64,000 nt of DNA from Clostridia bacterium (GCA_017464525.1 JAFTZM010000008.1:29623-93622), one strand, 5' to 3'. Shown: positions 20,105 through 64,000, counted from the stretch's first letter. The notes: a model not told the origin generated them from the letters alone. Numbers and translations are program-made.

Positions 20105-20112
20105 GTTTTATA

Positions 20113-20179: not shown

Positions 20180-20254
20180 TATACCATAATACTGGGTCAG
20201 TCCCCAAGAGAGGGGTCTTGGCCCGAAAAATATTTTCTTTAGGAGGAAAATAGT

Positions 20255-27807: not shown

Positions 27808-27863
27808 TATATTATCTATAGGCAAGTTGTATGGCTTGTATTATTGTAAATGGAGGTTTACTT

Positions 27864-28590: not shown

Positions 28591-28615
28591 AGTGCGAGAG
28601 GAGAAGGAGAAGAAT

Positions 28616-32741: not shown

Positions 32742-33824
32742 TTAATATTTGGCAACGATGGCCTGCATCTGGTCCTGCTTTTCTTCCATTTCCTGCACCA
32801 GCTTAAACTGGGTGCGGGCTCTTACCAGGTTGTGCTCCGGGTAGTCGCACTTAAAGTAAACATCGCCGTTCAGGTAATCGGCCAGGAAGCGGATGCCGCA
32901 TTCCAGGGTCATCATCCAGGCACCGGTGGGGAGGAGATCCTTCTCGGCAGGGGAAAGCACATTGTGGCATCCCTCCAGGAACCCTTGGGTGTAGGCATCG
33001 AAAAGCTCCAGATCCAGCTGAACCTTGGATAGATCCTTTTCATCCTCGGCGGCGGTGGAGGCCCCGTAGCGGATGGAGTCGCCGAAATCAAAGATGGCCT
33101 GGCCGGGCATCACGGTATCCAGATCAATGACGCAAATGCCTTCTCCGGTTTCGGGATCCAGCAAAACGTTGTTCAGCTTGGTGTCGTTGTGGGTGACGCG
33201 CAGAGGAAGTACACCTTGCTCCTGAAGATCCATTACAATGGCGGAGGAGTCTTCTCTTGCCAAGGCAAATTCCACTTCCTCCTTCACCGTTTCTAACCGG
33301 CCGGAGGCATTCTTCTCGATGGCCTCATGCAGCTGCTTCATTCGGGCGGGGGTGTCGTGAAAATGAGGGATGGTTTCGTGGAGTGTTTCTGCCGGGTAGG
33401 ATCCCAGCAACGCTTGAAACCGGCCAAAGGCCTTGCCACTGGCGTAAAAGTCTCGGGGGCTCCGGGCGGCATTCAATGCCATCAGATCGCTCTGAAACCG
33501 ATAGGCCCGCCATGCCCCTTCAGGCCCGTTGTAATATAGATCGCCGTCTTTGGTTTGGATGAAGGTCAGAGTCTCCCGATTGGGATTGCCGCCCTGCTCC
33601 ACGATCCGTTTTTTGAGAAACTCTGTAACACCAAAAACATTTTCCATCAGTCCTTGGGGATCGGTGAAAACATAGGTGTTCATTTTCTGTAGAATATACT
33701 GGGTATTCTTTTTGGAGGTCAGCAGCAGCGTCTCGTTGATGTGGCCGCTGCCAAAAGGCTCGGTTTTTACCACCTCGCCGTCAAAGGCAAAGGACTCGAT
33801 CACCTTCTGGAGTTCATTCATCAT
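32742..33824 (-). CDS. N-acetylhexosamine 1-kinase / AmgK-like phosphotransferase (APH/choline-kinase fold)
   Basis: 'FGSGHINET', 'ETIPHFHDTP', 'RVTHNDTKLNN', 'IDLDTVMPG', 'DFGDSIR', 'RFLADYLNGDVYF'; start reassigned to 33824 (GGGAGG RBS). Confidence 0.85.
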   Translation of the reverse strand: MMNELQKVIESFAFDGEVVKTEPFGSGHINETLLLTSKKNTQYILQKMNTYVFTDPQGLMENVFGVTEFLKKRIVEQGGNPNRETLTFIQTKDGDLYYNGPEGAWRAYRFQSDLMALNAARSPRDFYASGKAFGRFQALLGSYPAETLHETIPHFHDTPARMKQLHEAIEKNASGRLETVKEEVEFALAREDSSAIVMDLQEQGVLPLRVTHNDTKLNNVLLDPETGEGICVIDLDTVMPGQAIFDFGDSIRYGASTAAEDEKDLSKVQLDLELFDAYTQGFLEGCHNVLSPAEKDLLPTGAWMMTLECGIRFLADYLNGDVYFKCDYPEHNLVRARTQFKLVQEMEEKQDQMQAIVAKY

Positions 33825-33828
33825 GAAA

Positions 33829-34752
33829 TCATACCTCCCAAAGCTTCTCGGGGTAGACACCCGCATCCTTCAATGCCCGAATGCCTGCCTCTACCGTGGG
33901 CTTATCCTCTTTATAGGTGACGCCAAACCACTTGGCATCGCTGTGCAGCACCTGAACGGTAGCCTTGCCCTCATGAAGCAGCTCGTCTACCACAACAGGC
34001 AGGAAAAATTCGCCTTTTAACGGATTTTTTTCAACGGTTTCTTTGAGAAAAACAGGAAATTTTTCGTCCAAAGCACGCAGATATGCGAGAGGAAAACCCC
34101 ACATATTCATGGAGACCGGTGCCGTATTGGAGACTGGTACAAAGGTTTCTCCGCCATCCTCGGAGTAATGGGCTTGCCCGTCGATCTTCTGAATCATGGT
34201 ACGCTCATCGATCTTTTGCAGATAGCCATCCTCGCTGACCTGGCAAACACCTCGGGCTACATGGCCGTTATCGGTCAGGGTGTTTTCCAGTACATAGCCC
34301 ACCATGGAGATCTTCATGGGATCGGCTTCACCGGACTCCTTCAGAAAATCATAAAGCTGCACAAAGGCATCTCTGCCGTAAAAATCGTCGGCGTTGATCA
34401 CCGCGAAGGGTGCGTCCAGCACGTCCTTGCAGCAAAGGATGGCATGGCCGGTGCCCCAAGGCTTTACCCGCTCCGCGGGGATCTGGATCACCGGGGGGAT
34501 CTTATCCAACTCCTGGAACACATAATGCACTTCGGCGATCTTTTCGATCCGTTTGCCGATCACTTCCTTGAAATCCTTTTCGATCTGTTTTTTGATAACA
34601 AAAACGAATTTCTTAAAGCCGGCCTTCATAGCATCGTAAACAGAATAGTCCATGATGATGTTTCCGTGGGGATCCACCGGATCGATCTGCTTGAGCCCGC
34701 CGTAGCGGCTGCCCATACCTGCAGCCATGATGACTAAAATAGGTTCATTCAT
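33829..34752 (-). CDS. Sugar-1-phosphate nucleotidyltransferase (NTP_transferase family)
   Basis: 'LVIMAAGMGSRYGGLKQ', 'KPWGTGHA', 'INADDFYG'; start reassigned to 34752 (GGAGGAG RBS). Confidence 0.88.
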   Translation of the reverse strand: MNEPILVIMAAGMGSRYGGLKQIDPVDPHGNIIMDYSVYDAMKAGFKKFVFVIKKQIEKDFKEVIGKRIEKIAEVHYVFQELDKIPPVIQIPAERVKPWGTGHAILCCKDVLDAPFAVINADDFYGRDAFVQLYDFLKESGEADPMKISMVGYVLENTLTDNGHVARGVCQVSEDGYLQKIDERTMIQKIDGQAHYSEDGGETFVPVSNTAPVSMNMWGFPLAYLRALDEKFPVFLKETVEKNPLKGEFFLPVVVDELLHEGKATVQVLHSDAKWFGVTYKEDKPTVEAGIRALKDAGVYPEKLWEV

Positions 34753-34795
34753 AAGAAATGCTCCTCCTGATAGGTTGTTTTTATTCATATTATAT

Positions 34796-50199: not shown

Positions 50200-50238
50200 T
50201 TATTACTGATTTACTGATTGCAAAGGAGGTTTACTCTT

Positions 50239-50580
50239 ATGTCCGGTTATAGAAAGTTGGGCCGCCCTACCGCTCATCGTAAGGCGATGCTCAGAGGCAT
50301 GGTAACCTATCTGCTGGAGAACGGTTCTGTTGAAACCACTTTGACCCGTGCAAAGGAAGTTGGCAGAGTCGCCGAGAAGATGATTACCTTGGGCAAGGCT
50401 AATACGCTGCACACCAAGCGTCAGGCTCTGTCCTACATTACCAAGGAAGATGTTGTTAATAAGCTGTTTACCGAGATCGCTCCCAATTATGAAAGCGTGA
50501 ACGGCGGTTACACCCGTATCGTAAAGATCGGCCCCCGCCGCGGTGACGGTGCTGAAATGGCTATCGTTCAGTTGGTATAA
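50239..50580 (+). CDS. rplQ: 50S ribosomal protein L17
   Basis: [19 protein letters not shown]; start reassigned to 50239. Confidence 0.99.
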
Positions 50581-50591
50581 TTAAATTTTTA

Positions 50592-50619
50592 AAAAGAGAC
50601 CTCTTCGGAGGTCTCTTTT
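50592..50619 (+). terminator. Rho-independent terminator of the alpha operon
   Basis: AAAAGAGACCTC-TTCG-GAGGTCTCTTTT. Confidence 0.9.
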
Positions 50620-50671
50620 GTTTGTTGTATACAAAAATGAGTCGCTTTAGTTGTTCAATATAAATAAGGAA

Positions 50672-50689
50672 TGTTACATTAATGTGACA
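50672..50689. promoter_or_regulatory. Near-perfect 18-bp palindrome (operator candidate)
   Basis: TGTTACATTAATGTGACA, upstream of TATAAT at 50726. Confidence 0.45.
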
Positions 50690-50753
50690 AATTGGAAATT
50701 TGGTCGATTTTATTAATTTGCTGTGTATAATAGAAAATGAAGGAGGCGACGAA

Positions 50754-50849
50754 ATGCGTGTAAAGAGAATCAACATAATATGCCTGATATTCATACCGGC
50801 AAGACTATGGGGAGTACAAGCTTCCATTATGAATTCGATCAATAAATAA
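50754..50849 (+). CDS. Putative 31-aa small protein (or sRNA)
   Basis: AAGGAGG RBS before ATG; MRVKRINIICLIFIPARLWGVQASIMNSINK; own -10 and terminator. Confidence 0.4.
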   Translation: MRVKRINIICLIFIPARLWGVQASIMNSINK

Positions 50850-50850
50850 C

Positions 50851-50893
50851 TGCAACGGGAATGCCTTTCTTTGGCGTTCCCGTTGTACTTTTT
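50851..50893 (+). terminator. Rho-independent terminator
   Basis: TGCAACGGGAATGCC-TTTCTTT-GGCGTTCCCGTTGTA-CTTTTT. Confidence 0.75.
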
Positions 50894-50894
50894 G

Positions 50895-50923
50895 TTGCAA
50901 TCTCTTCCTAATTGTGATATATT
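50895..50923 (+). promoter_or_regulatory. Sigma-A promoter of the EEP cluster
   Basis: TTGCAA-17 bp-TATATT with extended TG. Confidence 0.6.
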
Positions 50924-50955
50924 TAAAGAAACAACACCCCGAAAGGAGCCGTTTT

Positions 50956-51984
50956 ATGAGAAAAATCATAGGTTTTTTATTGGTTTTTTGCTTGGTTTTA
51001 ACCGGTTGTGCCGGGTCCGGGCAGGAAGAGGAGAGCGCCCAAGTGGGCTACAAGCCCCCGGAGGTGGTGGGCAGCACGGTTCAGACGGGGGATAAGGATG
51101 AGATTATCAAGGAGGAAGAAGAGGCCCAGAAGGTCACCGTACCCACCGGCACCGGCGAGCAGGTGGAGGTGGTGGATTACACCGGCAAATTCCCCGTCAT
51201 CACCGAAAAAAATACCTTTTCCACCTTTAATATAAACATGAAAAATGAAAACGGCAAGGACGATCAAAGCTATGCCACCCGGCTAAAGCTGCTGATGGAG
51301 CTGTTGGTAAAGTATAATCCCGATGTGATCACCTTTCAGGAGGTGGGCAGCGATTGGATGGATTTCATCGTGCCCCAGCTGGAAAACATTTACGATTACT
51401 ACCTGATTTATCCTCAAAAAGAAGATAAAACCACTGCAAATCCCATCTTTTTTAAGATCGAAAAGTTTGAGGATGAATCCGGCGGCTGCTTCTGGGTCTC
51501 CGATACCCCCGAGGAGGAGTCCCCCGCACCGGACGGCAAATACTACAACTGCACCTGGCTTCAGTTGAAGGAAAAGGCCAGCGGTAATTCGGTTTATATT
51601 TTTAACTCTAAGCTGAGCCCTGAGGTGGGGCAAAAGGGCGCAGAGATCATTCGCTCCAAGTGTGAATTTGTGGGCTGGAAAAAGGCTATTGTATGCAACC
51701 TGGATCTGGGAGCTGCCTTAGACAGCGCCGCGGGAACGGTGCTGCAAAAGAATCTTTTCAACAGTAACACCACCAACAACGCCACTCCCACCAGCTATGT
51801 GTACAGCGGAGCCGGCGACATCCACGATTTCTCTCTGTATACCAAGGTCTGCCTGAGCCCTAAGACCTATAAGGTGGTCACCGACCGGATCGATGGAAAG
51901 ATGGTTTCGGATCACAACCCCATTTTCAGTGAGTTTTCCATCAATACCGAAACCCTCAACTACGAAGATCAATTTATCTTTTAG
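50956..51984 (+). CDS. EEP-family lipoprotein 1 (partly degenerate active site)
   Basis: Lipobox LTGC; STFNI, FQEV and SDH present, but NTH is replaced by NSK and GDFN by LDLG. Confidence 0.85.
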   Translation: MRKIIGFLLVFCLVLTGCAGSGQEEESAQVGYKPPEVVGSTVQTGDKDEIIKEEEEAQKVTVPTGTGEQVEVVDYTGKFPVITEKNTFSTFNINMKNENGKDDQSYATRLKLLMELLVKYNPDVITFQEVGSDWMDFIVPQLENIYDYYLIYPQKEDKTTANPIFFKIEKFEDESGGCFWVSDTPEEESPAPDGKYYNCTWLQLKEKASGNSVYIFNSKLSPEVGQKGAEIIRSKCEFVGWKKAIVCNLDLGAALDSAAGTVLQKNLFNSNTTNNATPTSYVYSGAGDIHDFSLYTKVCLSPKTYKVVTDRIDGKMVSDHNPIFSEFSINTETLNYEDQFIF

Positions 51985-51994
51985 GAGAATCCGT

Positions 51995-53062
51995 ATGAAT
52001 CATAAAAAATGGATGGCATTGGCCATGATTATCGCCCTGCTGCTTACCGGTATGGTGGGATGCAAAAAGGCGGAGGAGCAGACGCAGGAGGAGAGCGCCT
52101 CCGCCGGCGATGTGGTACAGCAGGAGGGAACCGAGCAGAAGCAGGAAACCACCAAAACGCCGGCCTCTACCAATAGTCCCGAGGTGGTAAACAAGAACGA
52201 TAAGACCATTACCCTTCCCACCAAAAAGGAAGAGCCGGAGGAGACCCCCAACGAGGAGGAGCCGAAGGAAGAGGTGGTGATCGAGGAAGGCAACAAGCTG
52301 AAGATCGTGGATTATAATGTGCGCTGTGTGGATGACGGTGTGGGCAAGACCATCGAGGAACGGGCAGTCCGCTTTGAGGATCTGATGAACCGGCTGGATC
52401 CGGATATCATGGGTCTGCAGGAGGTCACGCCCCGTTGGCTGGATTACCTCACCGAAAACTTTACCGACGATTATGAATATCTCCATCGCTGGCGGTCTGT
52501 GACCAGCGAGGAAGGTACTCCTATCTTTTGGAAAAAGGATAAATTTAAGCTGGTGGATTCCGGTTATTTCTGGCTCAGTGATACCCCTGACCGGGAAAGC
52601 AAGGCGGACAACTGGGGCGCCGATTGTTACCGCATTTGTATGTGGGTCAAGCTGAAAGTCAAGGCCACCGGGAAGGAATTCCTTTTCTTTAATACCCATT
52701 TCGATTATAAAAACGATACCTGCCATGTGAACAGCGCCAAGGTGGTCATTCAGCAGGCCACCAAGCTGAGAGGTTTCAGCAAATACGCCATCTTCTGCAC
52801 CGGCGATTATAATATGGGCCGTAACGGAAAGGGCTACCAGGCGATGTATCAGAAATTTGCCGATCTCAATGCGGATCTGAATGATGATCTTTCCCCTACC
52901 ACCAACGGCTATAACGAAAGTAATGGGGGCAGTATCATCGATTATGTGTTTTATTCGCCCCAACTGGTGAAGCCCTTGAAATATCAGGTGCTCAATGAAA
53001 AGATCTTCGACGGATATATCTCCGATCACCGGGGGATCTATGTAGAGGCTGCGCTGTTATGA
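51995..53062 (+). CDS. EEP-family lipoprotein 2
   Basis: Lipobox MVGC; acidic linker; YNVR, LQEV, FWLSDTP, NTH, GDYN, IDY, SDH. Confidence 0.92.
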   Translation: MNHKKWMALAMIIALLLTGMVGCKKAEEQTQEESASAGDVVQQEGTEQKQETTKTPASTNSPEVVNKNDKTITLPTKKEEPEETPNEEEPKEEVVIEEGNKLKIVDYNVRCVDDGVGKTIEERAVRFEDLMNRLDPDIMGLQEVTPRWLDYLTENFTDDYEYLHRWRSVTSEEGTPIFWKKDKFKLVDSGYFWLSDTPDRESKADNWGADCYRICMWVKLKVKATGKEFLFFNTHFDYKNDTCHVNSAKVVIQQATKLRGFSKYAIFCTGDYNMGRNGKGYQAMYQKFADLNADLNDDLSPTTNGYNESNGGSIIDYVFYSPQLVKPLKYQVLNEKIFDGYISDHRGIYVEAALL

Positions 53063-53832
53063 AAACTTTACTTTCTGCTGTAAGCTATAATCTCCGCGCA
53101 TGGAACGATGGAGAAAATAAAATGATCGGTGACCGTGCGCCTCGCCTGCAGGCGGTGATGTACGATCGCGATCCCGACCTGATGGGCTTTCAAGAGGTTC
53201 GTCCGGTTTGGATGAAGTACCTGACGCTCTATTTCGGGAATGAATACGACCATGAGATCATGTACCGGGATTCTGCCGGGCTGAACAGTGAATCCACCCC
53301 CATCTTCTGGAAGAAGAAAAAATTTCAACGCTTGGACGGCGGAAGCTTTTGGCTTAGCGAAACACCGGATCAGGAATCCAAGGGATGGGGTGCCGATTAT
53401 TATCGGGTCTGTACTTGGGTGCGGCTGAAATGCCGGGAAACCGGAGAAGAGTTTTTATACTACAATACGCACTACGACGGTCCCTCCTGCCATTGCGGCA
53501 GCAACCGGCTGGTTCTGGCTCATATGCGGGAGCAGGGCGGCTTTGCAGGATGCCCGGTTCTATATACCGGCGATTTCAATATGACACCTGAAAGTGAGGG
53601 CTATCGGGATCTTCTGGCAAGCGGGGAATTGAAGGATCTGAACTGCTTGCTGGAGGCCTCTGCGGCGATCACCACGGATGGTTATAATGAAAATAATGGC
53701 GGCCGCATCATCGATTTTTGTTACTGCTCGGAGCAAGTTATCCCCTCCAAATACCAGATCCTGAATCAGAAGATTCTGGGCGGTTATGTTTCTGACCACC
53801 GGGGTTTGTATATTGAAGCGGAACTCACCTAA
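53059..53832 (+). CDS. EEP-family protein 3 (no signal peptide)
   Basis: SYNLR, FQEV, FWLSETP, NTH, GDFN, SDH. Confidence 0.92.
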   Translation: MKTLLSAVSYNLRAWNDGENKMIGDRAPRLQAVMYDRDPDLMGFQEVRPVWMKYLTLYFGNEYDHEIMYRDSAGLNSESTPIFWKKKKFQRLDGGSFWLSETPDQESKGWGADYYRVCTWVRLKCRETGEEFLYYNTHYDGPSCHCGSNRLVLAHMREQGGFAGCPVLYTGDFNMTPESEGYRDLLASGELKDLNCLLEASAAITTDGYNENNGGRIIDFCYCSEQVIPSKYQILNQKILGGYVSDHRGLYIEAELT

Positions 53833-53856
53833 AAAACTTTATAGGAGGACAAAATC

Positions 53857-54975
53857 ATGACAGCAAAAAAATGGATGGCAATTGCCATGATCTTTGCACT
53901 GCTGCTGACCGGTATGGTGGGCTGTAAATCCCCCGATACGGAGGAGGGCGCTGTGGTGAACGAGTATGTGGAAGGGGATACTTCTGCTACCGATGTAGAG
54001 CAGGATCTGCCGGAAAAGGTGGAACAAAGTGAAACTGGTTCTTCTGCGAATGATACGGATGAGCTTGCCGATAACAGCGGCGATACAACCAAAACCGAAA
54101 CGCCGAAGGAGGATACGCCGGCTCTCGACACCCAGACTCTTACAGAGGATACCAACACCCCCGCCGAGGAGGATCCTGTGGAGGAGCCGGAGGTGCAGTA
54201 TCAGGCAGGAAATCTGCTGAAGTTGGTAGATTATAATGTGCGCTGCGCCAACGATGGGGATAACAAGCAGGTGGCCGACCGTGGACCCCGGCTGGAAAAG
54301 CTGATCGATCAGCTAGATCCCGATCTGATGGGCTTTCAGGAAGTAACGCCTACCTGGCGTGGATTGCTGGCCGGGTATTTCTCCGATGAATACGACTATG
54401 TATATAAGGAAAGAAACCCCGGCGGGGAGTGCACCCCTATTTTTTGGAAAAAAGATAAATTTGAAAAGATGGATGAGGGGTATTTCTGGCTCAGCGAGAC
54501 CCCCGAATCGGAATCCAAGGGCTGGGATGCGGATTATTACAGGATCTGCTCCTGGGTGCGGCTGAAGATCAAGGCCACCGGAAAAGAGTTTTTATACTTT
54601 AATTCCCATTGGGATGGCTCCGGTCAATGCCATATCGGCAGCGCCAAGGTGACCTTTTCCTATGCCCGCAAAGCGGGCGCCTTCAGCAAGTACGGAATGT
54701 TACTGACGGCCGACTTTAATATGATCCCCTGGAGCAAGGGCTATTCGGCGGTGGTGGAATCCGGGGAACTTTCGGATGTGAACTATGATCTGGAAAATGA
54801 CACGACTCCGACAACAAACGGCTATAATGACTCGTCGGGCGGCCGGATCATTGATATGTGCTTCTATTCCCCGGAAAAGATCCTGCCGGTCTCCTATAAG
54901 GTCCTGAACGAAAAGATTGATGGAGGATATATCTCCGACCACCGCGGCTTGCTGGTGGAGGTGGCAATTTTATAA
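53857..54975 (+). CDS. EEP-family lipoprotein 4
   Basis: Lipobox MVGC; YNVR, FQEV, NSH, ADFN, SDH. Confidence 0.92.
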   Translation: MTAKKWMAIAMIFALLLTGMVGCKSPDTEEGAVVNEYVEGDTSATDVEQDLPEKVEQSETGSSANDTDELADNSGDTTKTETPKEDTPALDTQTLTEDTNTPAEEDPVEEPEVQYQAGNLLKLVDYNVRCANDGDNKQVADRGPRLEKLIDQLDPDLMGFQEVTPTWRGLLAGYFSDEYDYVYKERNPGGECTPIFWKKDKFEKMDEGYFWLSETPESESKGWDADYYRICSWVRLKIKATGKEFLYFNSHWDGSGQCHIGSAKVTFSYARKAGAFSKYGMLLTADFNMIPWSKGYSAVVESGELSDVNYDLENDTTPTTNGYNDSSGGRIIDMCFYSPEKILPVSYKVLNEKIDGGYISDHRGLLVEVAIL

Positions 54976-55060
54976 AAAAATTGTGAAAAGCTATAGAATT
55001 ATTGTAAAAGGTGTGTTACAATAGTGTAAATCGACAATGGTTTTATAGGAGGACAAAATC

Positions 55061-56212
55061 ATGACAGCAAAAAAATGGATGGCAATTGCCATGATCTTTG
55101 CATTGTTGCTGACCGGTATGGTAGGCTGTAAATCCGCCGATACGGAGGAAGGCGCCGTAGTGGATGAATATGTGGAGAGCGATACGCCCGCTACCGAGGT
55201 AGAGCAGGATCTGCCGGAAAAGGTGGAGCAGAGCGGGAATACCGGCTCCTCTACGGATGATGGCGGCGACGAGCCCTCTCAGCAGCCCGCTGATAATAAC
55301 GATAACAGCAACGATACCCCCAATAATGATACCCCCGCTGATGATACGCCGAATACCGACACCCAGACGCCTACTGAGGATACCAACACCCCCTCTGATG
55401 ATACCCCGGAGGAGGAACCGACTGTGCAGTATAAAGAGGGCAACAAGCTGAAGGTAATGTCCTATAATGTACGCTGCGCCAACGATGGTACCGGCAGAAT
55501 GATCGCTGAGCGGGGCCCCCGGCTGGAGATCGTTGTGGATATGTATGACCCCGATATCGTGGGCTTCCAGGAGGTCACTCCCACCTGGCGGACGATGCTG
55601 GAGGGCTATTTCAGCGATGAATACGATTATGTGTATCAGGAGAGAAGCCCCGGCGGTGAATGTACCCCCATTTTCTGGAAAAAGGATAAGTTTGAAAAGA
55701 AGGACGGCGGCCATTTCTGGCTTTCCGAGACCCCCGATACCTCTTCCATCGGCTTCGGCGGCGATCATTACCGGGTGGTCAGCTGGGTGCGCCTGAAGAA
55801 TAAGGCCACCGGTACCCAGTTCCTCTATTTCAATACCCACTATGATTTCACTGCAACGCAGCATATTCCCAGCGGTCAGCTGATCCTTGCCCGTGCCCGC
55901 AAGGCCGGTGGCTTCAGCAAGTATGGCGTATTGCTGACTGCCGACTTCAATATGACCCCCTGGAGCAAGGGCTATCAGACGCTGGTGGAGACCGGTGATC
56001 TGAGCGATGTGAACTACGATCTGGAAAATCTTTCCGACGGCACCTGCAACGGTTATAACGACGGCGACGGATCCGGCGGCTCCATCATCGATATGTGCTT
56101 CTATTCCCCCGCCAAGATCGTACCTCTCAGTTATAAGGTGGTAAATGAAAAGGTCAACGACGGATATGTTTCCGACCACCGGGGCATTTTTATGGAGGTC
56201 GCTCTCTTATAA
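55061..56212 (+). CDS. EEP-family lipoprotein 5
   Basis: Lipobox MVGC; D/N/T/P-rich linker; SYNVR, FQEV, NTH, ADFN, SDH. Confidence 0.92.
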   Translation: MTAKKWMAIAMIFALLLTGMVGCKSADTEEGAVVDEYVESDTPATEVEQDLPEKVEQSGNTGSSTDDGGDEPSQQPADNNDNSNDTPNNDTPADDTPNTDTQTPTEDTNTPSDDTPEEEPTVQYKEGNKLKVMSYNVRCANDGTGRMIAERGPRLEIVVDMYDPDIVGFQEVTPTWRTMLEGYFSDEYDYVYQERSPGGECTPIFWKKDKFEKKDGGHFWLSETPDTSSIGFGGDHYRVVSWVRLKNKATGTQFLYFNTHYDFTATQHIPSGQLILARARKAGGFSKYGVLLTADFNMTPWSKGYQTLVETGDLSDVNYDLENLSDGTCNGYNDGDGSGGSIIDMCFYSPAKIVPLSYKVVNEKVNDGYVSDHRGIFMEVALL

Positions 56213-56215
56213 TCT

Positions 56216-56247
56216 AAAATACTCTCCCACGGGAGAGTATTTTTTTT
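56216..56247 (+). terminator. Rho-independent terminator
   Basis: AAAATACTCTCCC-AC-GGGAGAGTATTTTTTTT. Confidence 0.85.
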
Positions 56248-56330
56248 GAACTTTTTGCAATAAAAGGGTTTCTTTTTCAGGCAATGTATGGTAGAATGTG
56301 CACAACAAGAACTACCGGGAGGTAAGAGGT

Positions 56331-57416
56331 TTGAATTGTAAAAAATGGATGGTAGTAATATTACTGATCGTAATGTTACTTTCGGTTTGTACGGGATGTA
56401 AAAGTGAAGTTCCCGGCGAGACCGCCGCTGCGGATACCGAGGTGGTGGGCGAGGATAATACCCCGGAGGTGGAAGCCGATCTTCCCGAGGTCAATACCGG
56501 GGAGCCGGTGATCCAGCAGGGAACGTCCAATCAGCCTGACCCCCCCAAGGAAGAGCAGGAGGAAGAACCCAAGCAAGAGGAAGAAGCCCCTGTTGTAGAA
56601 ACTGACCCCTATGAGGTTCCCCTCTCCAAGACAGAAGCCACTACCGAGGATGGGATCACCTATTATCTGGAAAATAAATTTAAGGTAGTTTCCTATAATA
56701 TCCGCTGCGCCAACGATCCCAACGGCAACTCCATTGAGGAGCGGGCACCCCGGCTGGAGGAGGTCATTAATAAGTACGACCCCGATCTGATCGGTTTTCA
56801 GGAGTTCACCACTCCGTGGGAGATGCCTGTTGACTTTGCGTTTGCCGAAGAGTATGAGTATGTCTATAAATATCGGGCTGAGAGCAACCTGGAAGCTACC
56901 CCTGTGTTGTTCAAGCGGAGCAAATTCAAATTGTTGGATAGCGGCACCTACTGGCTCAGCGAGACCCCCGAGAAGGAATCTAAGGGCTGGGGCGCCGATC
57001 ATTACCGTATTGTTACTTGGGTCAAGCTGGAGGTGCGTCAGACGGGAAAGGTGCTTTATTTCTGCAGCACCCACTTCGATTTTACCGATGACCCGCAGGT
57101 AAACAGTGCGAATCTGATCATTGACAGGGTGAAGGGTGAATATAAAAATGCTCCCACTATCGTGGTAGGCGATTTCAATATGACCAAGCAATCCAAGGGC
57201 TACGCCGCTATGACCGCTTATTTTACCGATGCAAATGTAAAAAATGACCCTGCCAAAACCTATACCGGCTATGGCGAGGCCAAATCGTTGATCGATTTTA
57301 TCTTTGTGACCGGCAAGCATATCAAGCCGGTGGATTATAAGGTGATGGACGATAAGCCGGATGGGAACTTTGCTTCCGATCATTTCGGCGTTTACAGTGA
57401 GGTTATTATATTATGA
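56331..57416 (+). CDS. EEP-family lipoprotein 6
   Basis: TTG start after GGGAGG; lipobox CTGC; SYNIR, FQEF, STH, GDFN, SDH; TGgTAGAAT at 56289-56297 upstream. Confidence 0.9.
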   Translation: MNCKKWMVVILLIVMLLSVCTGCKSEVPGETAAADTEVVGEDNTPEVEADLPEVNTGEPVIQQGTSNQPDPPKEEQEEEPKQEEEAPVVETDPYEVPLSKTEATTEDGITYYLENKFKVVSYNIRCANDPNGNSIEERAPRLEEVINKYDPDLIGFQEFTTPWEMPVDFAFAEEYEYVYKYRAESNLEATPVLFKRSKFKLLDSGTYWLSETPEKESKGWGADHYRIVTWVKLEVRQTGKVLYFCSTHFDFTDDPQVNSANLIIDRVKGEYKNAPTIVVGDFNMTKQSKGYAAMTAYFTDANVKNDPAKTYTGYGEAKSLIDFIFVTGKHIKPVDYKVMDDKPDGNFASDHFGVYSEVIIL

Positions 57417-58336
57417 TGAAAAGGATCGTATGCTTTTTAATGCTGGCCGTACTGCTGGTGAGCGGCTTTACCGGCTGCAAAAAGAATGCCGCAGAATCGA
57501 TGATCCAGGAATATATTCTGGAGGATTCCGAAGGCTTTTATGATATCCCCGAAGCCTTTACCGCTTCGGTTACTGCAGACGGTACCGCCTATGCGGTGGA
57601 AAATAAGATCAAGGTAGTTTCTTATAACATCCGCTGCGCCAATGATGCCAACGGCAATTCCATCAAGGAGCGGGCGCCCCGGCTGGAGCAGGTGATCGGG
57701 AAGTACGATCCCGATATCATGGGATTTCAGGAGTTTGTGCCGGAATGGAACAATTATGTGGAGCCTGCCTTTTCCGATACCTATGATTATATCATCTATT
57801 ACCGCTCCAAGGATAACTATGAAGGCACCCCCGTTTTCTGGAAGCGGAATAAATTCAAGCTGCTGGACAGCGGCGTGTTCTGGCTCTCCGAGACCCCCGA
57901 TACGGAATCTCTGGGATGGGACGCCGATTACTACCGGATCTGCTCCTGGATCAAGCTGGAGGTGCGGGCTACCGGTAAGGTGTTCTATTATTATAATACC
58001 CACTTTGATTATACAGAGCCGCCTCAGGTGCCCAGCGCACAGTTGATGACTGAGCGGGTAGTGGCAGATGCCCCTGTGATCGTTACCGGTGATTTTAATA
58101 TGACACCCAAATCCAAGGGCTACGCTGCAATGACAGAGGTCTTTGCCGATGCCAATACCGCCGGCGATACCACCGCTACCTTTACCGATTACGGTACCAA
58201 GGAAGACCCCATTCTGATCGACTACATCTTTACGAAAGATTCCATCTCTGAAAATTATACGGTCATGACCGAGATGCCCGGCGGCAAATATGTCTCCGAT
58301 CATTTCGGAGTTTATAGCGAGGTAATTATATTATGA
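57413..58336 (+). CDS. EEP-family lipoprotein 7
   Basis: Lipobox FTGC; SYNIR, FQEF, NTH, GDFN, SDH; same C-terminus (SDHFGVYSEVIIL) as EEP6. Confidence 0.92.
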   Translation: MMKRIVCFLMLAVLLVSGFTGCKKNAAESMIQEYILEDSEGFYDIPEAFTASVTADGTAYAVENKIKVVSYNIRCANDANGNSIKERAPRLEQVIGKYDPDIMGFQEFVPEWNNYVEPAFSDTYDYIIYYRSKDNYEGTPVFWKRNKFKLLDSGVFWLSETPDTESLGWDADYYRICSWIKLEVRATGKVFYYYNTHFDYTEPPQVPSAQLMTERVVADAPVIVTGDFNMTPKSKGYAAMTEVFADANTAGDTTATFTDYGTKEDPILIDYIFTKDSISENYTVMTEMPGGKYVSDHFGVYSEVIIL

Positions 58337-59769
58337 AAGTGATCTCTTTTAACATCCGCAGTTCAAGCGACCCCAACGGTCATTCCTTTGATGAGCGGGC
58401 ACCCCGTGTGAAGGCGGTCATCGATAAGTATGACCCCGATCTCATCGGCTTCCAGGAGGTAGTTCCCGCCTGGATGGAGCATATTCCCGGCGATTATGGC
58501 GAAAAGTATGAAATTTTTCATAAGTTCCGTTGCGAGACCTTCGATGTGGAGGGCTGCCCCATCCTTTGGAAAAAGGATAAATTTGAGTGCCTGGATAAGG
58601 GCTACTTCTGGTTCTCCGAGACCCCCGGTATCGTCTCTCGGGGCTGGGATTCCATCGGCTGCCACCGCACCTGTATGTGGGTGAAGCTGCGGGATCTGGA
58701 GAAGGGCACTGTGTTCCATTTCTTCAATACCCACTTCGGGTTCAGCGATAAGTGCCAGCTGGACAGCGTGAAGCTGCTGATGGATCACTATAAGGCACTG
58801 AAGGTCAAGAGCGCTCTCATCACCGGCGATTTCAATATGTTTAAGCATTATCCGGCTTATAAAGAGCTGACCAAATCCCTCTGCAACATCAATGAGCTGC
58901 TGGATAACGACCAGAGCTTTACCTTTCATGGCTATCACCCCGAGTACCATGGCCATGAGACCCCCATCGATTTCTGCTTCGTCACCCCCGGTACCGTGGA
59001 GCCCATCTCCTATAAGCGGCTGGACGATACCTTCGAGGGCAAGTTCCCCTCCGACCATTACGGTCTCCTCTGCGAGATGGAGATGAAGCAGAATGTGGAG
59101 GTCATGAGCATGAATGTCTGTGCCGCTCTTCCCGGCGAGGAGGAGAAGGCCATCAAGGGCAGAATGAGCACCGCCAAGCTGCATATCATGCGGTATGTGG
59201 TTCCCGATGTGGCAGGCCTGCAGGAGGTTCCTGCCTTTGCAGAGGAATCCTTCACCAAGACCAAGAACTACGGCTATGCGCCTCTGGGCAGTAAAAACCC
59301 CGTTCTCTGGCATGAGCCCGATTATGAAAAGGTGGCGGAGGCCATTCTCCCCCTGCCCGGCGCTGAGGAGTGCAGTATTGTGACCCTCCGGCATATCAGC
59401 ACCGGCAAGCAGTTTTGCTGTTTCAATGCCCATATTGTGGAAAACGAGGAGGAAAGTGTCCGGCTGATCTGCGAAAAGATCGCCGCCTGCCAGTTGCCGG
59501 TGGTACTGCTGGGCAGCCTCAATTGCCAGATCGGCAGCCCCGCCTATAAGCGGCTGCGGGAGATGCTGGCGGATGTCCGCTGGGAGAAGGCCCCCGGCAA
59601 CATTCAGCCCACCCGCCATGGCCTTGGGCAGGATATGGTGGCGCCCGCCATTGCGGACTATGTCTTCTGCAAGGATCTGGCCCCTGTCCGCTATGAGCTG
59701 ATGGCGGTGAAGAACCGCTTCGAAAAGGTCACCGACCACGATGCCATCCTAGCAGATGTGGCGTTTTGA
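58333..59769 (+). CDS. Double-domain EEP protein 8 (no signal peptide; second domain degenerate)
   Basis: Domain 1 intact; domain 2 has LQEV, NAH, GSLN, TDH. Confidence 0.9.
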   Translation: MKVISFNIRSSSDPNGHSFDERAPRVKAVIDKYDPDLIGFQEVVPAWMEHIPGDYGEKYEIFHKFRCETFDVEGCPILWKKDKFECLDKGYFWFSETPGIVSRGWDSIGCHRTCMWVKLRDLEKGTVFHFFNTHFGFSDKCQLDSVKLLMDHYKALKVKSALITGDFNMFKHYPAYKELTKSLCNINELLDNDQSFTFHGYHPEYHGHETPIDFCFVTPGTVEPISYKRLDDTFEGKFPSDHYGLLCEMEMKQNVEVMSMNVCAALPGEEEKAIKGRMSTAKLHIMRYVVPDVAGLQEVPAFAEESFTKTKNYGYAPLGSKNPVLWHEPDYEKVAEAILPLPGAEECSIVTLRHISTGKQFCCFNAHIVENEEESVRLICEKIAACQLPVVLLGSLNCQIGSPAYKRLREMLADVRWEKAPGNIQPTRHGLGQDMVAPAIADYVFCKDLAPVRYELMAVKNRFEKVTDHDAILADVAF

Positions 59770-60608
59770 AAATGAACGGTTATAAGCTGATTGCTTCCGA
59801 TCTGGACGGCACCTTTCTGAACGGGGAGATGGAGATCACCCCGGAAAATACCCGGGCCATCGCCGCCCTGCGGGAGCGGGGAGTTGAATTTGTTCCCGCC
59901 TCCGGCCGTACCTTCGGGGAGATGGATCCCGAGCTGCGGGAGCACCCGGATCTGCGCTATTATATCTATTCCGACGGTGCGGTGGTCTTCGATAAGGAGA
60001 CCGGCGAGATGGATACCGCCTGCATGGACTGTGAGCTGTGCAACCGGATCTTTGATATCCTGGAGGAATTTCAGGTATTCCTGGTTGCCCATTGCGGCGG
60101 AAATTCCTACATAGACGGAGAGAGAATGCAACCGTCGGTTCTGGAGCATCACCGCATCAGCCGGTATTACGGCATGATCCTGGCGGAACGGAACCGGGCT
60201 GTCACAGGCTTCCGGGAATTTTACCGCAGCCGGGAGGAGATCGAGCAGATCTTTGTTTTCTTCCACAGCGACGATGAGCTAGCGGAATGCCGCCGGCGCC
60301 TTCTGCGCTTGGGAGAGGTGCAGGTGCTCTCCTCCGAGCCCGGCACCTTTGAGATCGTTTCCGCCTGCGCCGGAAAGGGCAACGGCCTTCTCCGCCTGGC
60401 AAAACGGCTGGGGATCGATCCCTCCCAAACGGTAGCGGTGGGAGACAGCTGTAACGATCTTTCCATGCTTCAGGCCGCAGGCCTTTCCCTTGCAGTTTCC
60501 AATGCATGGGAGGAGGTCAAGGCGGCGGCAGACCGGACGATCTGCTCCAACGATGAGCATATCGTGCCATACATTTTGGAACATATTATGAAGGAGAACA
60601 CAGTATGA
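59766..60608 (+). CDS. Cof-type HAD-superfamily phosphatase
   Basis: DLDGTFL, ASGR, GKGNG, GDSCND motifs; alternative start ATG 59772. Confidence 0.93.
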   Translation: MKMNGYKLIASDLDGTFLNGEMEITPENTRAIAALRERGVEFVPASGRTFGEMDPELREHPDLRYYIYSDGAVVFDKETGEMDTACMDCELCNRIFDILEEFQVFLVAHCGGNSYIDGERMQPSVLEHHRISRYYGMILAERNRAVTGFREFYRSREEIEQIFVFFHSDDELAECRRRLLRLGEVQVLSSEPGTFEIVSACAGKGNGLLRLAKRLGIDPSQTVAVGDSCNDLSMLQAAGLSLAVSNAWEEVKAAADRTICSNDEHIVPYILEHIMKENTV

Positions 60609-61942
60609 AAGTAGTATCTTTTAATATCCGCTGTGCCAACGATAAGGACGGCCACTCTGTTGCAGAGCGGGCGCCCCGGGTCAAGGCGCTGATCGAAAAG
60701 TACGATCCCGATCTCATCGGTTTCCAGGAGGTAGTGCCCCGCTGGATGGAGCACATCCCCGGCGATTACGGCGATACTTACGAGCTGTTCCATAAATACC
60801 GGGATGAGGTCACCGATATCGAGGGCTGCTCCATTCTTTGGAAAAAGGATAAATTTGAGTGCCTGGATAAGGGATATTTCTGGTATTCCGATACCCCGGA
60901 GATCCCCTCCCGGGGTTGGTGCAGCTGGGGCCATTACCGCATTTGTATGTGGGTGAAGCTCCGGGATCTGACCAATGGGGCAGAGTTCCACTTCTTCAAT
61001 ACCCATTTCGGCTTCAGCGACCAATGCCATATCGATAGCGTTCGCCTGATCCGGGATCATATCCGGCATCTGGGCGCAAAGGCAGTGGTGCTGACCGGCG
61101 ATTTCAATATGACCCAGAACGGCCCCGGCTATCGGGATATGACCCAGTTCCTGGTGGATGTGAATAAGGCCACCGCCAATGATATCAGCATCACCTGCCA
61201 TGGCTATAACCCCGACCGTACTGGCATCCCCATCGACTTCTGCTTTGTTACTCCCAATACCATGCATCCTGTTTCCTACCATAAAATGGATGAGCGGTTC
61301 GACGGGAAATTCCCCTCCGATCACTATGGTCTTTTCTGCGAGGTGGAGCCCCGCCAGAGCCTGCGGGTGGTGGGCATCAATGCCGCCGCTGCCGCCGAAG
61401 GGGATCATGAAGCGCGGATGCGCAGTATCCGCAACCGTGTGGTAAATTCCGGTGCCGATATCGCTGCTCTGCAGAATGAAGATGAATCTTTGGTTGATAA
61501 GATGAGTCGCGCCCGGGGCTATGAGGGCGCTCAGTCGATCTATTGGAAAAAAGCAGTGTATGCTTTGGAGCAGGAACTGGAAGGCGCTGTGGTGCTGAAA
61601 AATGTCAAGACCGGCAAAAAGCTCTGCGTGGCCAACGGCGGCAAGGCCGCTCCGGGAATGCCCGCCATTGCAGCTGTGACCGATCAGCCCATAGGCGGGG
61701 ACGGCTACCGGGCGCTCCGGGCGGAATATCAGGATGTCCGCCGGGTGATCGCGCCCCGGAATTATACGCCCACCTACCATGCCATGGGCGCCGATATGGC
61801 AGCTCCTGCCATCGAAAGTTATGTATTCTATCAGGGTGAGGAACTGATCCCCGTTTCCTATCAGGTAGAAGAATTGATCAGCCGCGGTGAATATCTTGCC
61901 GACCGCAGTGCTGTCGTTGCTGATTTTGTAGTAAAGATCTGA
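60605..61942 (+). CDS. Double-domain EEP protein 9 (no signal peptide; second domain strongly degenerate)
   Basis: Domain 1 intact; domain 2 has LQNE and ADR in place of SDH and lacks NTH/GDFN. Confidence 0.9.
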   Translation: MKVVSFNIRCANDKDGHSVAERAPRVKALIEKYDPDLIGFQEVVPRWMEHIPGDYGDTYELFHKYRDEVTDIEGCSILWKKDKFECLDKGYFWYSDTPEIPSRGWCSWGHYRICMWVKLRDLTNGAEFHFFNTHFGFSDQCHIDSVRLIRDHIRHLGAKAVVLTGDFNMTQNGPGYRDMTQFLVDVNKATANDISITCHGYNPDRTGIPIDFCFVTPNTMHPVSYHKMDERFDGKFPSDHYGLFCEVEPRQSLRVVGINAAAAAEGDHEARMRSIRNRVVNSGADIAALQNEDESLVDKMSRARGYEGAQSIYWKKAVYALEQELEGAVVLKNVKTGKKLCVANGGKAAPGMPAIAAVTDQPIGGDGYRALRAEYQDVRRVIAPRNYTPTYHAMGADMAAPAIESYVFYQGEELIPVSYQVEELISRGEYLADRSAVVADFVVKI

Positions 61943-61955
61943 GGAGGATAAGATC

Positions 61956-63458
61956 ATGATCAAAGTAATTACCTTTAACCTGCGCTGTGCCAATGACCCG
62001 GACGGCCACTCCATCGATGAGCGGGCTCCCCGCTTAAAGAAGGTGCTGGCTCCGCTGGATGCCGATCTCATCGGTTTTCAGGAAGTGGTTCCCCGCTGGA
62101 TGGAGCATCTGGAGGAGGATTACGGTGCAGAATATGAGATCTTCAATAAGTACCGTGCCGCCCACAACAAAGAGGCGACCCCGATGATGTGGAAGAAGAG
62201 CCGCTTTGAGTGCCTGGATAAGGGCTACTTCTGGCATTCCGATACCCCCGATATAGAATCCCAGGGCTGGGACAGCATCGGCTGCTACCGCATCTGCCTT
62301 TGGGCAAAGCTGCGGGATAAGGTAGACGGCAGCGAGATCGTCTTTTTCAACACCCACTATGGCTTCGGCGATTACTGCCAGGTCAATAGCGGCCGCCTGA
62401 TCCTGGATCATATCAAGGCCATGAAGGCGGATGCCGCATTTGTAACTGCCGACTTTAATATGTACCCCGGCTCCGCCGGCTATAAGAAGCTGACCGAGGA
62501 ACTGGTGGATTGCAATGCCGCTACCCTGAATTACGGTGGCTGCACCTACCATGGCTATCATCCTGAAAACCATGGGAACGGCCGCCCCATCGACTTCTGC
62601 TTTGCAACCCCCGATACTGTGACCCCCGTTGCCACCACCCTGCTGGATCAGGATTTCGACGGGAAGTATCCCTCCGATCATTTCGGCTTCCTTTATGAGC
62701 TGGAGATCCATCAGCGCCTGAAGCTGATGAGCTTCAATGTGCAGAACAACGGCGCTCCCAAGAGCCCCGAGGATCGGGCTCGGATGCTTCGCAGCATCAT
62801 CCGTAAGTACAATGCTGATGTGGTGGGCCTGCAGGAGGTCACCCCCATCTTTGTGGAGAAGCTGGAAAAGATCGGCCGCTATGGCATCTCCCTCAAGTAT
62901 CGCCTGGAGGAGCAGAAGGAGGCCACTCCTGTCCTCTGGAACAAGGAAAAATTCGATCTGGTTCATGAGGAGTTCTTCTGGCTCAGCGAGACTCCCGATC
63001 AGCCGGGTAAGGGCTTCGGCGGCCACTATGTGCGGATCGCTACTTTGGTGGTGCTGCAGTATAAGAATTCCGATCGCCGGATCTGCTATGTAAATACCCA
63101 TTTCGATTTCGGCGATGAAAATCATGTGGCCTCTGCCAAGCTCATCAAGGAGAAGGTGGCACCCTATGGCGATATGCCCATCTTTGTGACCGCCGATTTC
63201 AATATGCATATCGGCGGAGCCGGCTATAAGGCCATGCGGGAGAATTTCAAGGATGTCCGCTGGGAGGTTGCCCCCCGCGACTTCACTCCCACCTATAACA
63301 GTTTGGGGCATGATATGTGTGCTCCCCAGATCATCGATTTTGTCTTTACCAACGGCGTAAAAGCCACTCCTAAGAGCTATAAGGTCATCGACGAAATGCC
63401 CAAGGGCGAGTATGTTTCCGATCACAATGGTATCTTTACTACTTTTATTATCGACTAA
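61956..63458 (+). CDS. Double-domain EEP protein 10 (no signal peptide; both domains intact)
   Basis: Two full sets of FN..QE..NTH..ADFN..IDF..SDH. Confidence 0.92.
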   Translation: MIKVITFNLRCANDPDGHSIDERAPRLKKVLAPLDADLIGFQEVVPRWMEHLEEDYGAEYEIFNKYRAAHNKEATPMMWKKSRFECLDKGYFWHSDTPDIESQGWDSIGCYRICLWAKLRDKVDGSEIVFFNTHYGFGDYCQVNSGRLILDHIKAMKADAAFVTADFNMYPGSAGYKKLTEELVDCNAATLNYGGCTYHGYHPENHGNGRPIDFCFATPDTVTPVATTLLDQDFDGKYPSDHFGFLYELEIHQRLKLMSFNVQNNGAPKSPEDRARMLRSIIRKYNADVVGLQEVTPIFVEKLEKIGRYGISLKYRLEEQKEATPVLWNKEKFDLVHEEFFWLSETPDQPGKGFGGHYVRIATLVVLQYKNSDRRICYVNTHFDFGDENHVASAKLIKEKVAPYGDMPIFVTADFNMHIGGAGYKAMRENFKDVRWEVAPRDFTPTYNSLGHDMCAPQIIDFVFTNGVKATPKSYKVIDEMPKGEYVSDHNGIFTTFIID

Positions 63459-63465
63459 ATAAGAA

Positions 63466-63502
63466 GGACCCGGGCCTGCATAGCGCAGGTCTGGGTCTCT
63501 TT
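63466..63502 (+). terminator. Stem-loop, possible weak terminator
   Basis: GGACCCGGGCCTGC-ATAGC-GCAGGTCTGGGTCT-CTTT. Confidence 0.55.
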
Positions 63503-63521
63503 GCTTAAATGGAGGTATATC

Positions 63522-64000
63522 ATGCTGAAAGTCATTACGTTTAACATCCTTTGCGGGGTTCGCAACGAGACCCCCGACCATGAAAATTCCAAGCAGAACC
63601 GTGCTCCCCGCCTGCAGGCGGTCATTCAGCCGCTGGATGCCGACCTGATCGGTCTTCAGGAGGCCCGCCCCGCCTGGATGCCTATGCTGGAGGAGGCCTA
63701 CGGTAAGGACTACGAGATATTCTATAAGGAGCGCAAGGTGGATAATCCGGAATCCACTCCCATGATGTGGAAAAAGAGCCGCTTTGATTGCCTGGAGAAA
63801 GGCTATTTCTGGCTTTCCGATACCCCCGACGTAGAAAGCGGCGGCTGGGATAACTACGGCTGCCACCGCATTGCGGTCTGGGCGAAGCTCCACGATAAGC
63901 AGGAGGACCGGGATATCGTCTTTATCAACACCCACTATGGCTTTGGTGATGAAAATCAGGTCAAGAGCAGTAAGCTGATCATGGATCATATCAAGCTCTG
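63522..64000 (+). CDS. EEP-family protein 11 (3'-truncated by window end)
   Basis: GGAGG RBS; MLKVITFNIL..LIGLQEA..FWLSDTP..INTHYG. Confidence 0.9.
   Translation, partial: MLKVITFNILCGVRNETPDHENSKQNRAPRLQAVIQPLDADLIGLQEARPAWMPMLEEAYGKDYEIFYKERKVDNPESTPMMWKKSRFDCLEKGYFWLSDTPDVESGGWDNYGCHRIAVWAKLHDKQEDRDIVFINTHYGFGDENQVKSSKLIMDHIKL

Follow-up and report, generated by a model that had tools for sequence, protein, structure and literature searches.

The window analyzed in this work is a 64,000-nucleotide stretch of the genome of a Clostridia bacterium (genome G000; G000:C40:29623-93622), and its 3′ end carries a tandem array of genes encoding phosphoesterases of the EEP superfamily. The array genes are labeled E01-E18, with a gene for a HAD phosphatase lying between E08 and E10. 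Twelve plus-strand open reading frames (ORFs) occupy positions 50914-63998, and PF03372 matches 11 of the 12; ten of these 11 score 30.2-88.8 bits, above the 24.5-bit cut-off, and the remaining one, E12, reaches 21.4 bits, being truncated where the window ends. Three of the ORFs (58333-59769, 60605-61942, and 61956-63458) contain two domains each, which gives 14 EEP domains within the window; eleven EEP genes with at least 14 domains is also what a first-pass annotation of the sequence had counted. That annotation had missed the HAD gene (59772-60608), but its expectation that the array runs past the window was correct: seven EEP genes, from the truncated E12 to E18, lie wholly or partly beyond base 64000, and the array ends at window-equivalent position 69571 (G000:C40:99193), 412 bases before addB. 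The array is real, then, but its size had been understated; on the contig it comprises 17 EEP genes with 21 EEP domains and the one HAD gene, in 18.6 kb on a single strand, and a PF03372 scan of the contig returns 19 matches within C40:80845-99160. Twenty-one homologous domains on one strand in 18.6 kb form an array far beyond chance. Its limits are rplQ on the left, at the end of a ribosomal-protein/secY/adk/rpoA/rplQ operon, and addB-addA on the right. The features of the locus are as follows; hairpins and promoter-like sites are from consensus scans only, and L001 is the contig stretch that takes in E12 and continues past the window end.

50218-50580, plus strand: rplQ (ribosomal protein L17; PF01196, 130 bits), last gene of the ribosomal/rpoA operon and left border of the array
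50592-50619 and 50851-50887: terminator-like hairpins 3′ of rplQ
50895-50923, plus strand: promoter-like site ahead of E01 (TTGCAA-17-TATATT, TG before it)
50943-50949: AAAGGAG ribosome-binding site of E01
50956-51984, plus strand: E01, lipoprotein (lipobox LTGC); EEP domain altered, with NTH replaced by NSK and GDFN by NLDLG, and with N, QE, and SDH kept
51995-53062, plus strand: E02, lipoprotein (MVGC) with an acidic linker of ~80 residues and an intact EEP domain
53059-53832, plus strand: E03, lone EEP domain without signal peptide; 4-base overlap of its start with the stop of E02
53857-54975, plus strand: E04, lipoprotein, acidic linker, intact EEP domain
55061-56212, plus strand: E05, lipoprotein, acidic linker, intact EEP domain
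56331-57416, plus strand: E06, lipoprotein (CTGC), acidic linker, intact EEP domain; start taken at TTG 56331, with GTG 56298 beginning the longest ORF
57413-58336, plus strand: E07, lipoprotein (FTGC), short linker, intact EEP domain
58333-59769, plus strand: E08, predicted cytoplasmic, two domains; N-terminal domain intact, C-terminal domain (E08b) degenerate, with the FWLSETP segment deleted and DFN replaced by SLN
59772-60608, plus strand: Cof-type HAD-IIB phosphatase (sugar-phosphatase-like; PF08282, Hydrolase_3, 163.5 bits), inside the array
60605-61942, plus strand: E10, predicted cytoplasmic, two domains; N-terminal domain intact, C-terminal domain (E10b) dead, with QE replaced by QN, SDH by ADR, and the FWLSETP segment deleted
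61956-63458, plus strand: E11, predicted cytoplasmic, two intact EEP domains (PF03372, 88.8 bits in two stretches)
63466-63498, plus strand: terminator-like hairpin of 14 pairs between E11 and E12
63522-64000 in the window, plus strand, the full gene reaching 64289 (L001:145-912): E12, predicted cytoplasmic, single EEP domain
L001:909-6194, after E12: E13 (two intact domains) and E14-E18 (single domains)
L001:6607-9861, after E18: addB

Neighboring genes in the array are spaced by -4 to 130 bases. The 4-base stop/start overlaps noted in the first-pass annotation occur at six junctions, four in the window (E02/E03, E06/E07, E07/E08, and HAD/E10) and two beyond it (E12/E13 and E17/E18). The hairpin after E11 probably splits the array into two transcription units. 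On these pattern matches, transcription probably starts from a promoter of the array's own and yields at least two units. Co-transcription with the ribosomal operon was considered and rejected, on the consensus scans alone, because two strong hairpins and a promoter-like site intervene between rplQ and E01. A 31-codon ORF (50755-50850), which could encode a small protein or leader peptide, lies between those two hairpins; a strong GAAGGAGG ribosome-binding site precedes it, as does an extended -10-like TGTGTATAAT. At the other end of the array, a promoter-like site also precedes addB, after the 412-base gap, which contains a hairpin.

Public DNA contigs from three gut-metagenome runs of one study (X1-X3), which may be the source samples, cover 50200-60865 at even depth with zero differences. 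The segment 61264-64000 is not covered by the X1-X3 contigs and is met only as low-depth pieces in a fourth run (X4), which is not evidence of its absence. Recent amplification and assembly artefact are both ruled out as origins of the array, given that protein identity between paralogues does not exceed 69% and that the metagenome contigs match without differences.

The motifs quoted in the first-pass annotation are present in the array, that is, (Y/F)N(I/V)R, QE, FWLSETP, NTH, DFN, and SDH. In an alignment of 18 of the domains, N, QE, H, D-x-N, D, and DH are invariant (N11, E46, H138, D172, N174, D219, D246, and H247 in E03 numbering), as are the branch-specific residues R26, R70, E78, W98, P103, and R116. 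All catalytic residues are thus kept in 18 of the 21 domains; the three that depart are E01, E08b, and E10b. The altered site of the E01 type is also kept in orthologues from two other species of the genus (G015 and G012), and the degenerate C-terminal halves of the E08/E10 type are kept in orthologues from three (G018, G005, and G008), so the degeneracy is not decay in G000 alone. An AlphaFold2 model of E10 is confident across both halves (pLDDT 87.4, pTM 0.79). We infer that the three degenerate domains are probably non-catalytic binding or scaffold modules.

Searches against PDB sequences and structures identify the branch of the superfamily, and the initial assignment to EEP phosphoesterases is upheld by PF03372, by the catalytic constellation, and by the fold. 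With E07 as phmmer query, the matches are BVU_0621 (3G6S; 5.8e-30), BT3783 (3MPR/4C1R; 5e-28), 3L1W from Enterococcus faecalis V583 (1.3e-13), and TDP2 (1e-5); a profile of the 18 domains finds 3G6S at 1.2e-48, BT3783 at 4.1e-46, and 3L1W at 4.1e-35. The next branch, with TDP2 and Nocturnin, is met at ~1e-11 (best 6e-12), ~35 orders of magnitude in E-value away, and beta-hemolysin, a sphingomyelinase, at 3e-5; at E ≤ 0.001, the profile finds no DNase I, ExoIII/APE, or CdtB chain in the PDB. The AlphaFold2 model of E03 (pLDDT 92.9, pTM 0.92) is a four-layer alpha/beta sandwich. In Foldseek, its ranks 1-7 are BVU_0621, BT3783, and 3L1W entries, with TM-scores of 0.86-0.91 for four of them; the matches at E ≤ 0.001 number at least 296 PDB chains, of which the 30 listed are all EEP proteins. 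Also, the FWLSETP..(S)KGW..R(I/V)C.W segment of E07 lines up position by position with 3MPR and 3G6S; E08b and E10b have lost this segment. Together, the profile and model matches place the array enzymes in the BT3783/BVU_0621/3L1W branch of the EEP superfamily, which we take to be the 'EEP-1' group of CDD. As a separate candidate, anti-phage defence was rejected: PADLOC gave no match for 17 of the 18 array proteins and a single match (E 5.4e-4) in the low-complexity linker of E05.

The array divides into two sets according to predicted location. Six of the first seven genes (E01, E02, and E04-E07) encode a hydrophobic leader ending in a lipobox, whereas none of the later genes does; the lipoboxes (LTGC, VGC, VGC, VGC, TGC, and TGC) fall within the initial 18-26 residues and were read by eye against the pattern [LVI][ASTVI][GAS]C, without a predictor. 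In the lipoproteins, the catalytic domain is preceded by an acidic linker of 40-100 residues (P/T/E-rich, pI ~4.1). In the other 11 of the 17 EEP proteins (E03, E08, and E10-E18), the catalytic domain begins at the start of the protein with no signal peptide, and these are predicted to be cytoplasmic. The domains themselves are acidic in 20 of 21 cases (pI 4.6-6.1). The first 192 nt of the E04 and E05 units (53838-54029 and 55042-55233), which take in the upstream region, the signal peptide/leader, and the start of the linker, are 90% identical, compared with 73-78% for the catalytic parts; this difference suggests gene conversion or constraint on the leader.

The paralogues have diverged deeply (20-69% protein identity, median 38%). 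Their history was examined in a maximum-likelihood tree of 71 domains, a single quick tree with SH-aLRT support only; its rows are near-full-length matches from G000, from eight loci of relatives, and from five distant loci, with partial matches shorter than 180 profile positions (E08b and E10b among them) dropped. In the tree, E01 groups with G012 and G015; E06/E07 with G012, G005, and G018; E08, E10, and E18 with G018, G005, and G008; and E11, E13, and E14 with G020, G015, and G012. Orthologues in other species thus exist for most paralogue types, which indicates that the types have long been kept apart. The relatives hold either the E08-E10-E18 set or the E11-E13-E14 set; G000 holds both, the second nested between E10 and E18. 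The identity of these blocks to their orthologues follows that of AddB from the same species (51-57% vs 60-61%, and 67-72% vs 71%), and because of this tracking we favor vertical descent with differential loss over recent transfer. Duplications specific to G000 (E03/E04/E05, E06/E07, E12, and E15/E16/E17) show identities of 49-69%, by which they too are old.

The same site was then compared across relatives, with eight stretches from seven species of the genus mapped against the G000 proteins. In five species, a contig spans the site (G020, G018, G005, G015, and G012) and carries 3-5 EEP genes with 5-6 domains between rplQ and addB; in G008, the contig stops inside the array. The gene after rplQ in G017 encodes an EEP lipoprotein; next come 8.5 kb encoding an RNase_T-type exonuclease, an unknown protein of 1874 residues, and an SGNH esterase, and then three EEP genes, a further SGNH esterase, and a CE4 deacetylase. 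The HAD gene is absent from all eight stretches. At four loci of two sister genera, rplQ has neither an EEP gene nor addB within 4-10 kb (on a fifth contig, only 33 bases followed rplQ). Because the adjacency is not seen in these four sister-genus loci, the idea of an ancient EEP-addB link was rejected. A small array at the rplQ-addB site is a hallmark of the genus, and the G000 array is three to four times larger than any other array compared at the site. A second tandem array is seen in G017 (L086:2812-11465), with six lipoproteins of 437-490 residues that carry a diverged, insert-bearing EEP domain; G023 encodes many partial-match proteins that resemble these lipoproteins.

Elsewhere in the G000 genome, the profile search locates nine further domains of the branch, for a total of 30 with the 21 in the array, plus a weak match to another EEP branch on C20. 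The dispersed copies, by contig, are:

C22, C12, and C7: lipoproteins built like those of the array
C42: two lipoproteins
C34: a copy with a dockerin-like N-terminus
C27: a copy fused to a region of ~380 residues, beside a GH38 gene
C25: two copies in giant dockerin-bearing surface proteins

The C27 gene (G000:C27:116545-118461; L095:7546-9462) is convergent with the GH38 alpha-mannosidase gene; its product has no signal peptide, and the C-terminal region fused to the EEP domain has no Pfam match. The C25 proteins (G000:C25:162-9957; L096) are adjacent, with 1859 and 1355 residues, and each has a mid-protein EEP domain and a dockerin at the C-terminus, and the 1859-residue protein additionally carries a cohesin and a Listeria-Bacteroides repeat.

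A census with the same profile (E ≤ 1e-20, genomes ≥90% complete) gave 28 matches for G000, 2-19 (median 11) for 17 other species of the genus, and 0-3 for nine genomes of two sister genera; at E ≤ 1e-10, matches are found in 24 of 24 genomes of the genus vs 7 of 16 from other families of the order (0-2 each). In an even draw across the class, in which at most six candidates were scored per genome, a match is found in 48 of 399 scored genomes, G000 and G020 included; only these two reached six, and the maximum outside the genus is four. Five genomes examined through the distant loci (four Bacteroidota genera and one Lachnospiraceae metagenome-assembled genome) have 1-3 matches each. The first-pass view that such a local expansion is unusual thus stands outside the genus, where it is rare, and G000 has the largest array; within the genus, however, arrays of 3-5 genes at the rplQ-addB site are routine.

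The characterized member of the branch considered here comes from Bacteroides thetaiotaomicron. BT3783 (PDB 3MPR/4C1R) is the mannose-6-phosphatase of the yeast-mannan utilization locus (Cuskin et al. 2015, PMC4978465), and, in that report, BT3783 and BT2630 are assayed as phosphatases on phosphorylated sugars and phosphorylated high-mannose N-glycans. The array enzymes share with BT3783 the EEP branch (profile 4e-46, TM-score 0.86-0.90, ~30% identity), the FWLSETP..GW..RIC.W segment, and all catalytic residues. BT3783 is secreted and works with glycosidases; unlike the array, it is encoded by a single gene in a Gram-negative polysaccharide utilization locus together with GH38, GH76, and GH92. 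By comparison, the 17 genes of the array stand by themselves, flanked by housekeeping operons of a Gram-positive-type genome, and encode both lipoproteins and predicted cytoplasmic proteins, some of them with two domains and some with a dead domain. BVU_0621 is the best profile match, and 3L1W is the fourth; both are single-domain proteins of ~250-260 residues like E03 and E12-E18, and both are structural-genomics entries annotated as of unknown function. The solved chain of 3L1W has no secretion signal, and we take the protein to be cytoplasmic; it, or its family, is presumably MapP, a maltose-6′-phosphate phosphatase. MapP acts downstream of the maltose phosphotransferase system (PTS) and is defined by its coupling to that PTS or to a mal operon. 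Such coupling is not seen here: the sole PTS EIIC match in G000 is on C39, and the array and the eight dispersed loci that were inspected have none. With only this one EIIC gene, away from the array's contig, few copies at most could act like MapP after uptake by the PTS.

TDP2 and Nocturnin, the next-nearest proteins (E ~1e-11, TM-score 0.72-0.83), have the same catalytic constellation at 17-20% identity and, judged from weak alignments only, have no FWLSETP-type segment. Classed by homology, the array enzymes are new members of a known, thinly characterized EEP branch. What is new is the scale and organization of the array (17 genes, in surface and cytoplasmic tiers, at a site that is constant within one genus), the conservation of two-domain proteins in which one half is dead, and the dockerin-borne display; in the literature on EEP dockerins and cellulosomes, PF03372 expansions, and EEP sugar phosphatases and polysaccharide utilization loci, we found no description of arrays of such EEP genes.

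The reading that we favor, with a probability of roughly 0.55, is that the locus is a genus-specific array, expanded in G000, of Mg2+-dependent phosphoesterases that act on sugar and glycan phosphates in a surface tier and a cytoplasmic tier. Phosphate on glycans (yeast phosphomannan, phosphorylated starch, N-glycans, and microbial phosphoglycans) blocks glycosidases, and, to our knowledge, only a handful of enzymes that remove it are known. In the proposed mechanism, the six membrane-anchored lipoproteins (E01, E02, and E04-E07) would act outside the cell on their long acidic tethers, assisted by the lipoprotein, dockerin-bearing, and giant-surface-protein copies encoded elsewhere in the genome, and would strip glycosidase-blocking phosphate from phosphorylated glycans and oligosaccharides; the cytoplasmic tier (E03, E08, and E10-E18 with the Cof-type HAD protein) would then finish imported phospho-oligosaccharides or sugar phosphates. 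The HAD product scores 149.8 bits against TIGR00099 (cut-off 137) and falls below the cut-offs of the specific equivalog models (YidA-like sugar phosphatase and others). Gene content, family and fold, the kept catalytic residues, predicted localization signals, and the distribution across genomes are observed, and from them we infer phosphomonoesterase activity, carbohydrate substrates, and a two-tier pathway; a two-tier dephosphorylation would fit branch membership, intact metal-dependent sites, the split between surface and cytoplasm, and the embedded HAD gene. Because the paralogues are deeply diverged yet their catalytic residues are strictly kept, each may take a different phospho-sugar or linkage. 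The diversified battery proposed in the first-pass annotation is therefore retained, and its list of candidate substrates (teichoic acids, phosphoglycans, phospholipid head groups, and nucleic acids) can be narrowed provisionally to sugar and glycan phosphates, since BT3783-type enzymes are the nearest, no DNase I- or ExoIII-type chain is matched at E ≤ 0.001, sphingomyelinase is remote, and 20 of the 21 domains are acidic; acidic domains are ill suited to polyanions such as DNA or teichoic acid.

The carbohydrate context lends weak support to the sugar-phosphate reading. The dispersed copies have as neighbors AraC regulators (C7 and C34), SGNH and other esterases (C12), GH38 (C27), and GH77 (C42); esterases also occur in the G017 locus; dockerins are present on 4 of 17 fused homologues examined in other Clostridia, and 30 dockerin matches above cut-off occur among the 35 listed for G000. 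Several observations weigh on the other side. No glycoside hydrolase, transporter, or regulator lies inside the array, and its immediate neighbors, rplQ and addBA, are housekeeping genes, so the carbohydrate link derives from homology and from the dispersed copies, whose neighborhoods are mixed. The closest solved relatives are only ~30% identical, with a published activity considered here for one, and among the eight EEP proteins scanned against NCBIfam no model reached its cut-off, with ExoIII and MnuA matched only far below threshold. EEP enzymes change substrate class easily, and the next-nearest folds act on nucleic-acid ends (TDP2, on 5′-tyrosyl DNA ends) or on NADP(H) (Nocturnin). In the relatives, addB is preceded on its own strand, at a distance of 18-143 bases, by the last EEP gene, an arrangement that would be compatible with DNA-end processing. 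Finally, BT3563, a surface-exposed EEP-family lipoprotein of the gut bacterium B. thetaiotaomicron, as the array lipoproteins would be, is an extracellular DNase (PMC8851478).

These last points are the basis of an explanation in which the lipoproteins would be extracellular DNases or RNases that feed on or remodel extracellular DNA, and the cytoplasmic copies would clean damaged DNA ends (TDP2-like or 3′-phosphatase-like) ahead of AddAB. The superfamily includes many nucleases, and outside the subfamily no fold is nearer than that of TDP2. The array also borders addBA, and 4 of 17 fused homologues have a lamin-tail domain, a frequent companion of secreted nucleases and phosphatases. However, the profile that detects BT3783-type chains at 1e-46 to 1e-48 recovers no DNase-type chain among the solved structures (the BT3563 sequence itself was not compared), the domains are acidic, PADLOC returned nothing except the weak match in the E05 linker, and a gene of the sugar-phosphatase type sits within the array. 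The proximity to addB also loses force, with addB in G000 having its own promoter-like site after the hairpin-containing gap and the adjacency being confined to the genus and missing in the sister genera. We consider a nucleic-acid role improbable. Phosphodiesterases for teichoic or lipoteichoic acids, phosphodiester-bridged capsules, or (glyco)sphingo- or phospholipid head groups, with which the organism would feed on microbial envelopes or plant membrane lipids, seem slightly less improbable, though still unlikely: surface lipoproteins and dockerin-borne copies would suit insoluble or polymeric targets, EEP sphingomyelinases exist (beta-hemolysin is the remote match at 3e-5), and two of the dispersed copies have, respectively, a PLD-type gene and a sulfatase/LtaS-type gene nearby. 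Against this, the matches are ~40 orders of magnitude weaker than those of the BT3783 type, polyanionic teichoic acids would be poor targets for acidic enzymes held on acidic tethers, and 11 of the 17 EEP genes encode cytoplasmic proteins.

The cytoplasmic majority also argues against general phosphate scavenging, in which redundant, broad-range phosphatases would be multiplied for dosage with no real specialization. In its favor, the array has many tandem copies with the same catalytic core, and the extracellular site of some copies is typical of phosphate-scavenging enzymes; but amplification for dosage gives near-identical copies, whereas identity in the array reaches only 69% for the closest pair, with a median of 38%, and single paralogue types have orthologues kept across species, so of the explanations considered we regard this one as the least likely. 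A more ambitious proposal, about as doubtful as the envelope phosphodiesterases, is that the rplQ-addB site is a diversification hot spot that has become a Gram-positive 'phosphoglycan utilization locus', a self-contained surface/cytoplasm system in which dead EEP domains serve as phospho-sugar-binding modules. Such a lectin-like use of the EEP fold, of which we found no description in the literature searched, would have co-opted the E01-type lipoprotein along with E08b and E10b, and the organism would gain access to phosphorylated dietary, fungal, or microbial glycans that competitors cannot strip.

Other parts of the window and contig also contain features of note. Positions 35-32651 encode giant cohesin-bearing proteins (8151-15440, with rubredoxin/zinc-ribbon-like matches; 15609-20060; and 20255-27655), a 235-residue cohesin and dockerin adaptor (27831-28538), a further cohesin protein (28592-30430), and an SLH-domain protein (30684-32651); judged from their domains, the cohesin group and the SLH protein are a cellulosome-like surface scaffold system. 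An ORF of 2074 residues in the same region (1704-7928) has no Pfam match. Between the SLH protein gene and the ribosomal operon, adjoining genes on the minus strand (32742-34788) encode an APH-type phosphotransferase and a nucleotidyl-transferase. Long antisense frames recur on the minus strand (e.g., 9582-15497, 15582-20141, 20117-24178, and 62034-63989), reaching 1971 residues opposite the 2429-residue cohesin protein and 651 residues opposite E11/E12; those scanned have no Pfam match, and the frames look like an effect of codon usage that could mislead gene callers. Downstream of addA (L001:13526-18206), two URO-D-like (methyltransferase-type) genes flank an AraC regulator fused to B12-binding domains; an unannotated ORF of 374 residues lies in the same interval.

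If the enzymes proved to be redundant broad phosphatases or nucleases, the locus would be simply a large paralogue array. With the sugar-phosphate reading, an uncultured genus of gut Clostridia would hold, in a 2.6-Mb genome, up to ~30 domains of one EEP branch as a natural library of specificities. The 18 intact, diverged active sites at one locus are a resource for assigning substrates in the branch, and the conserved two-domain proteins with a dead half are a test case for the retention of pseudoenzyme domains. The array would then also be a marker of an unrecognized nutritional niche.

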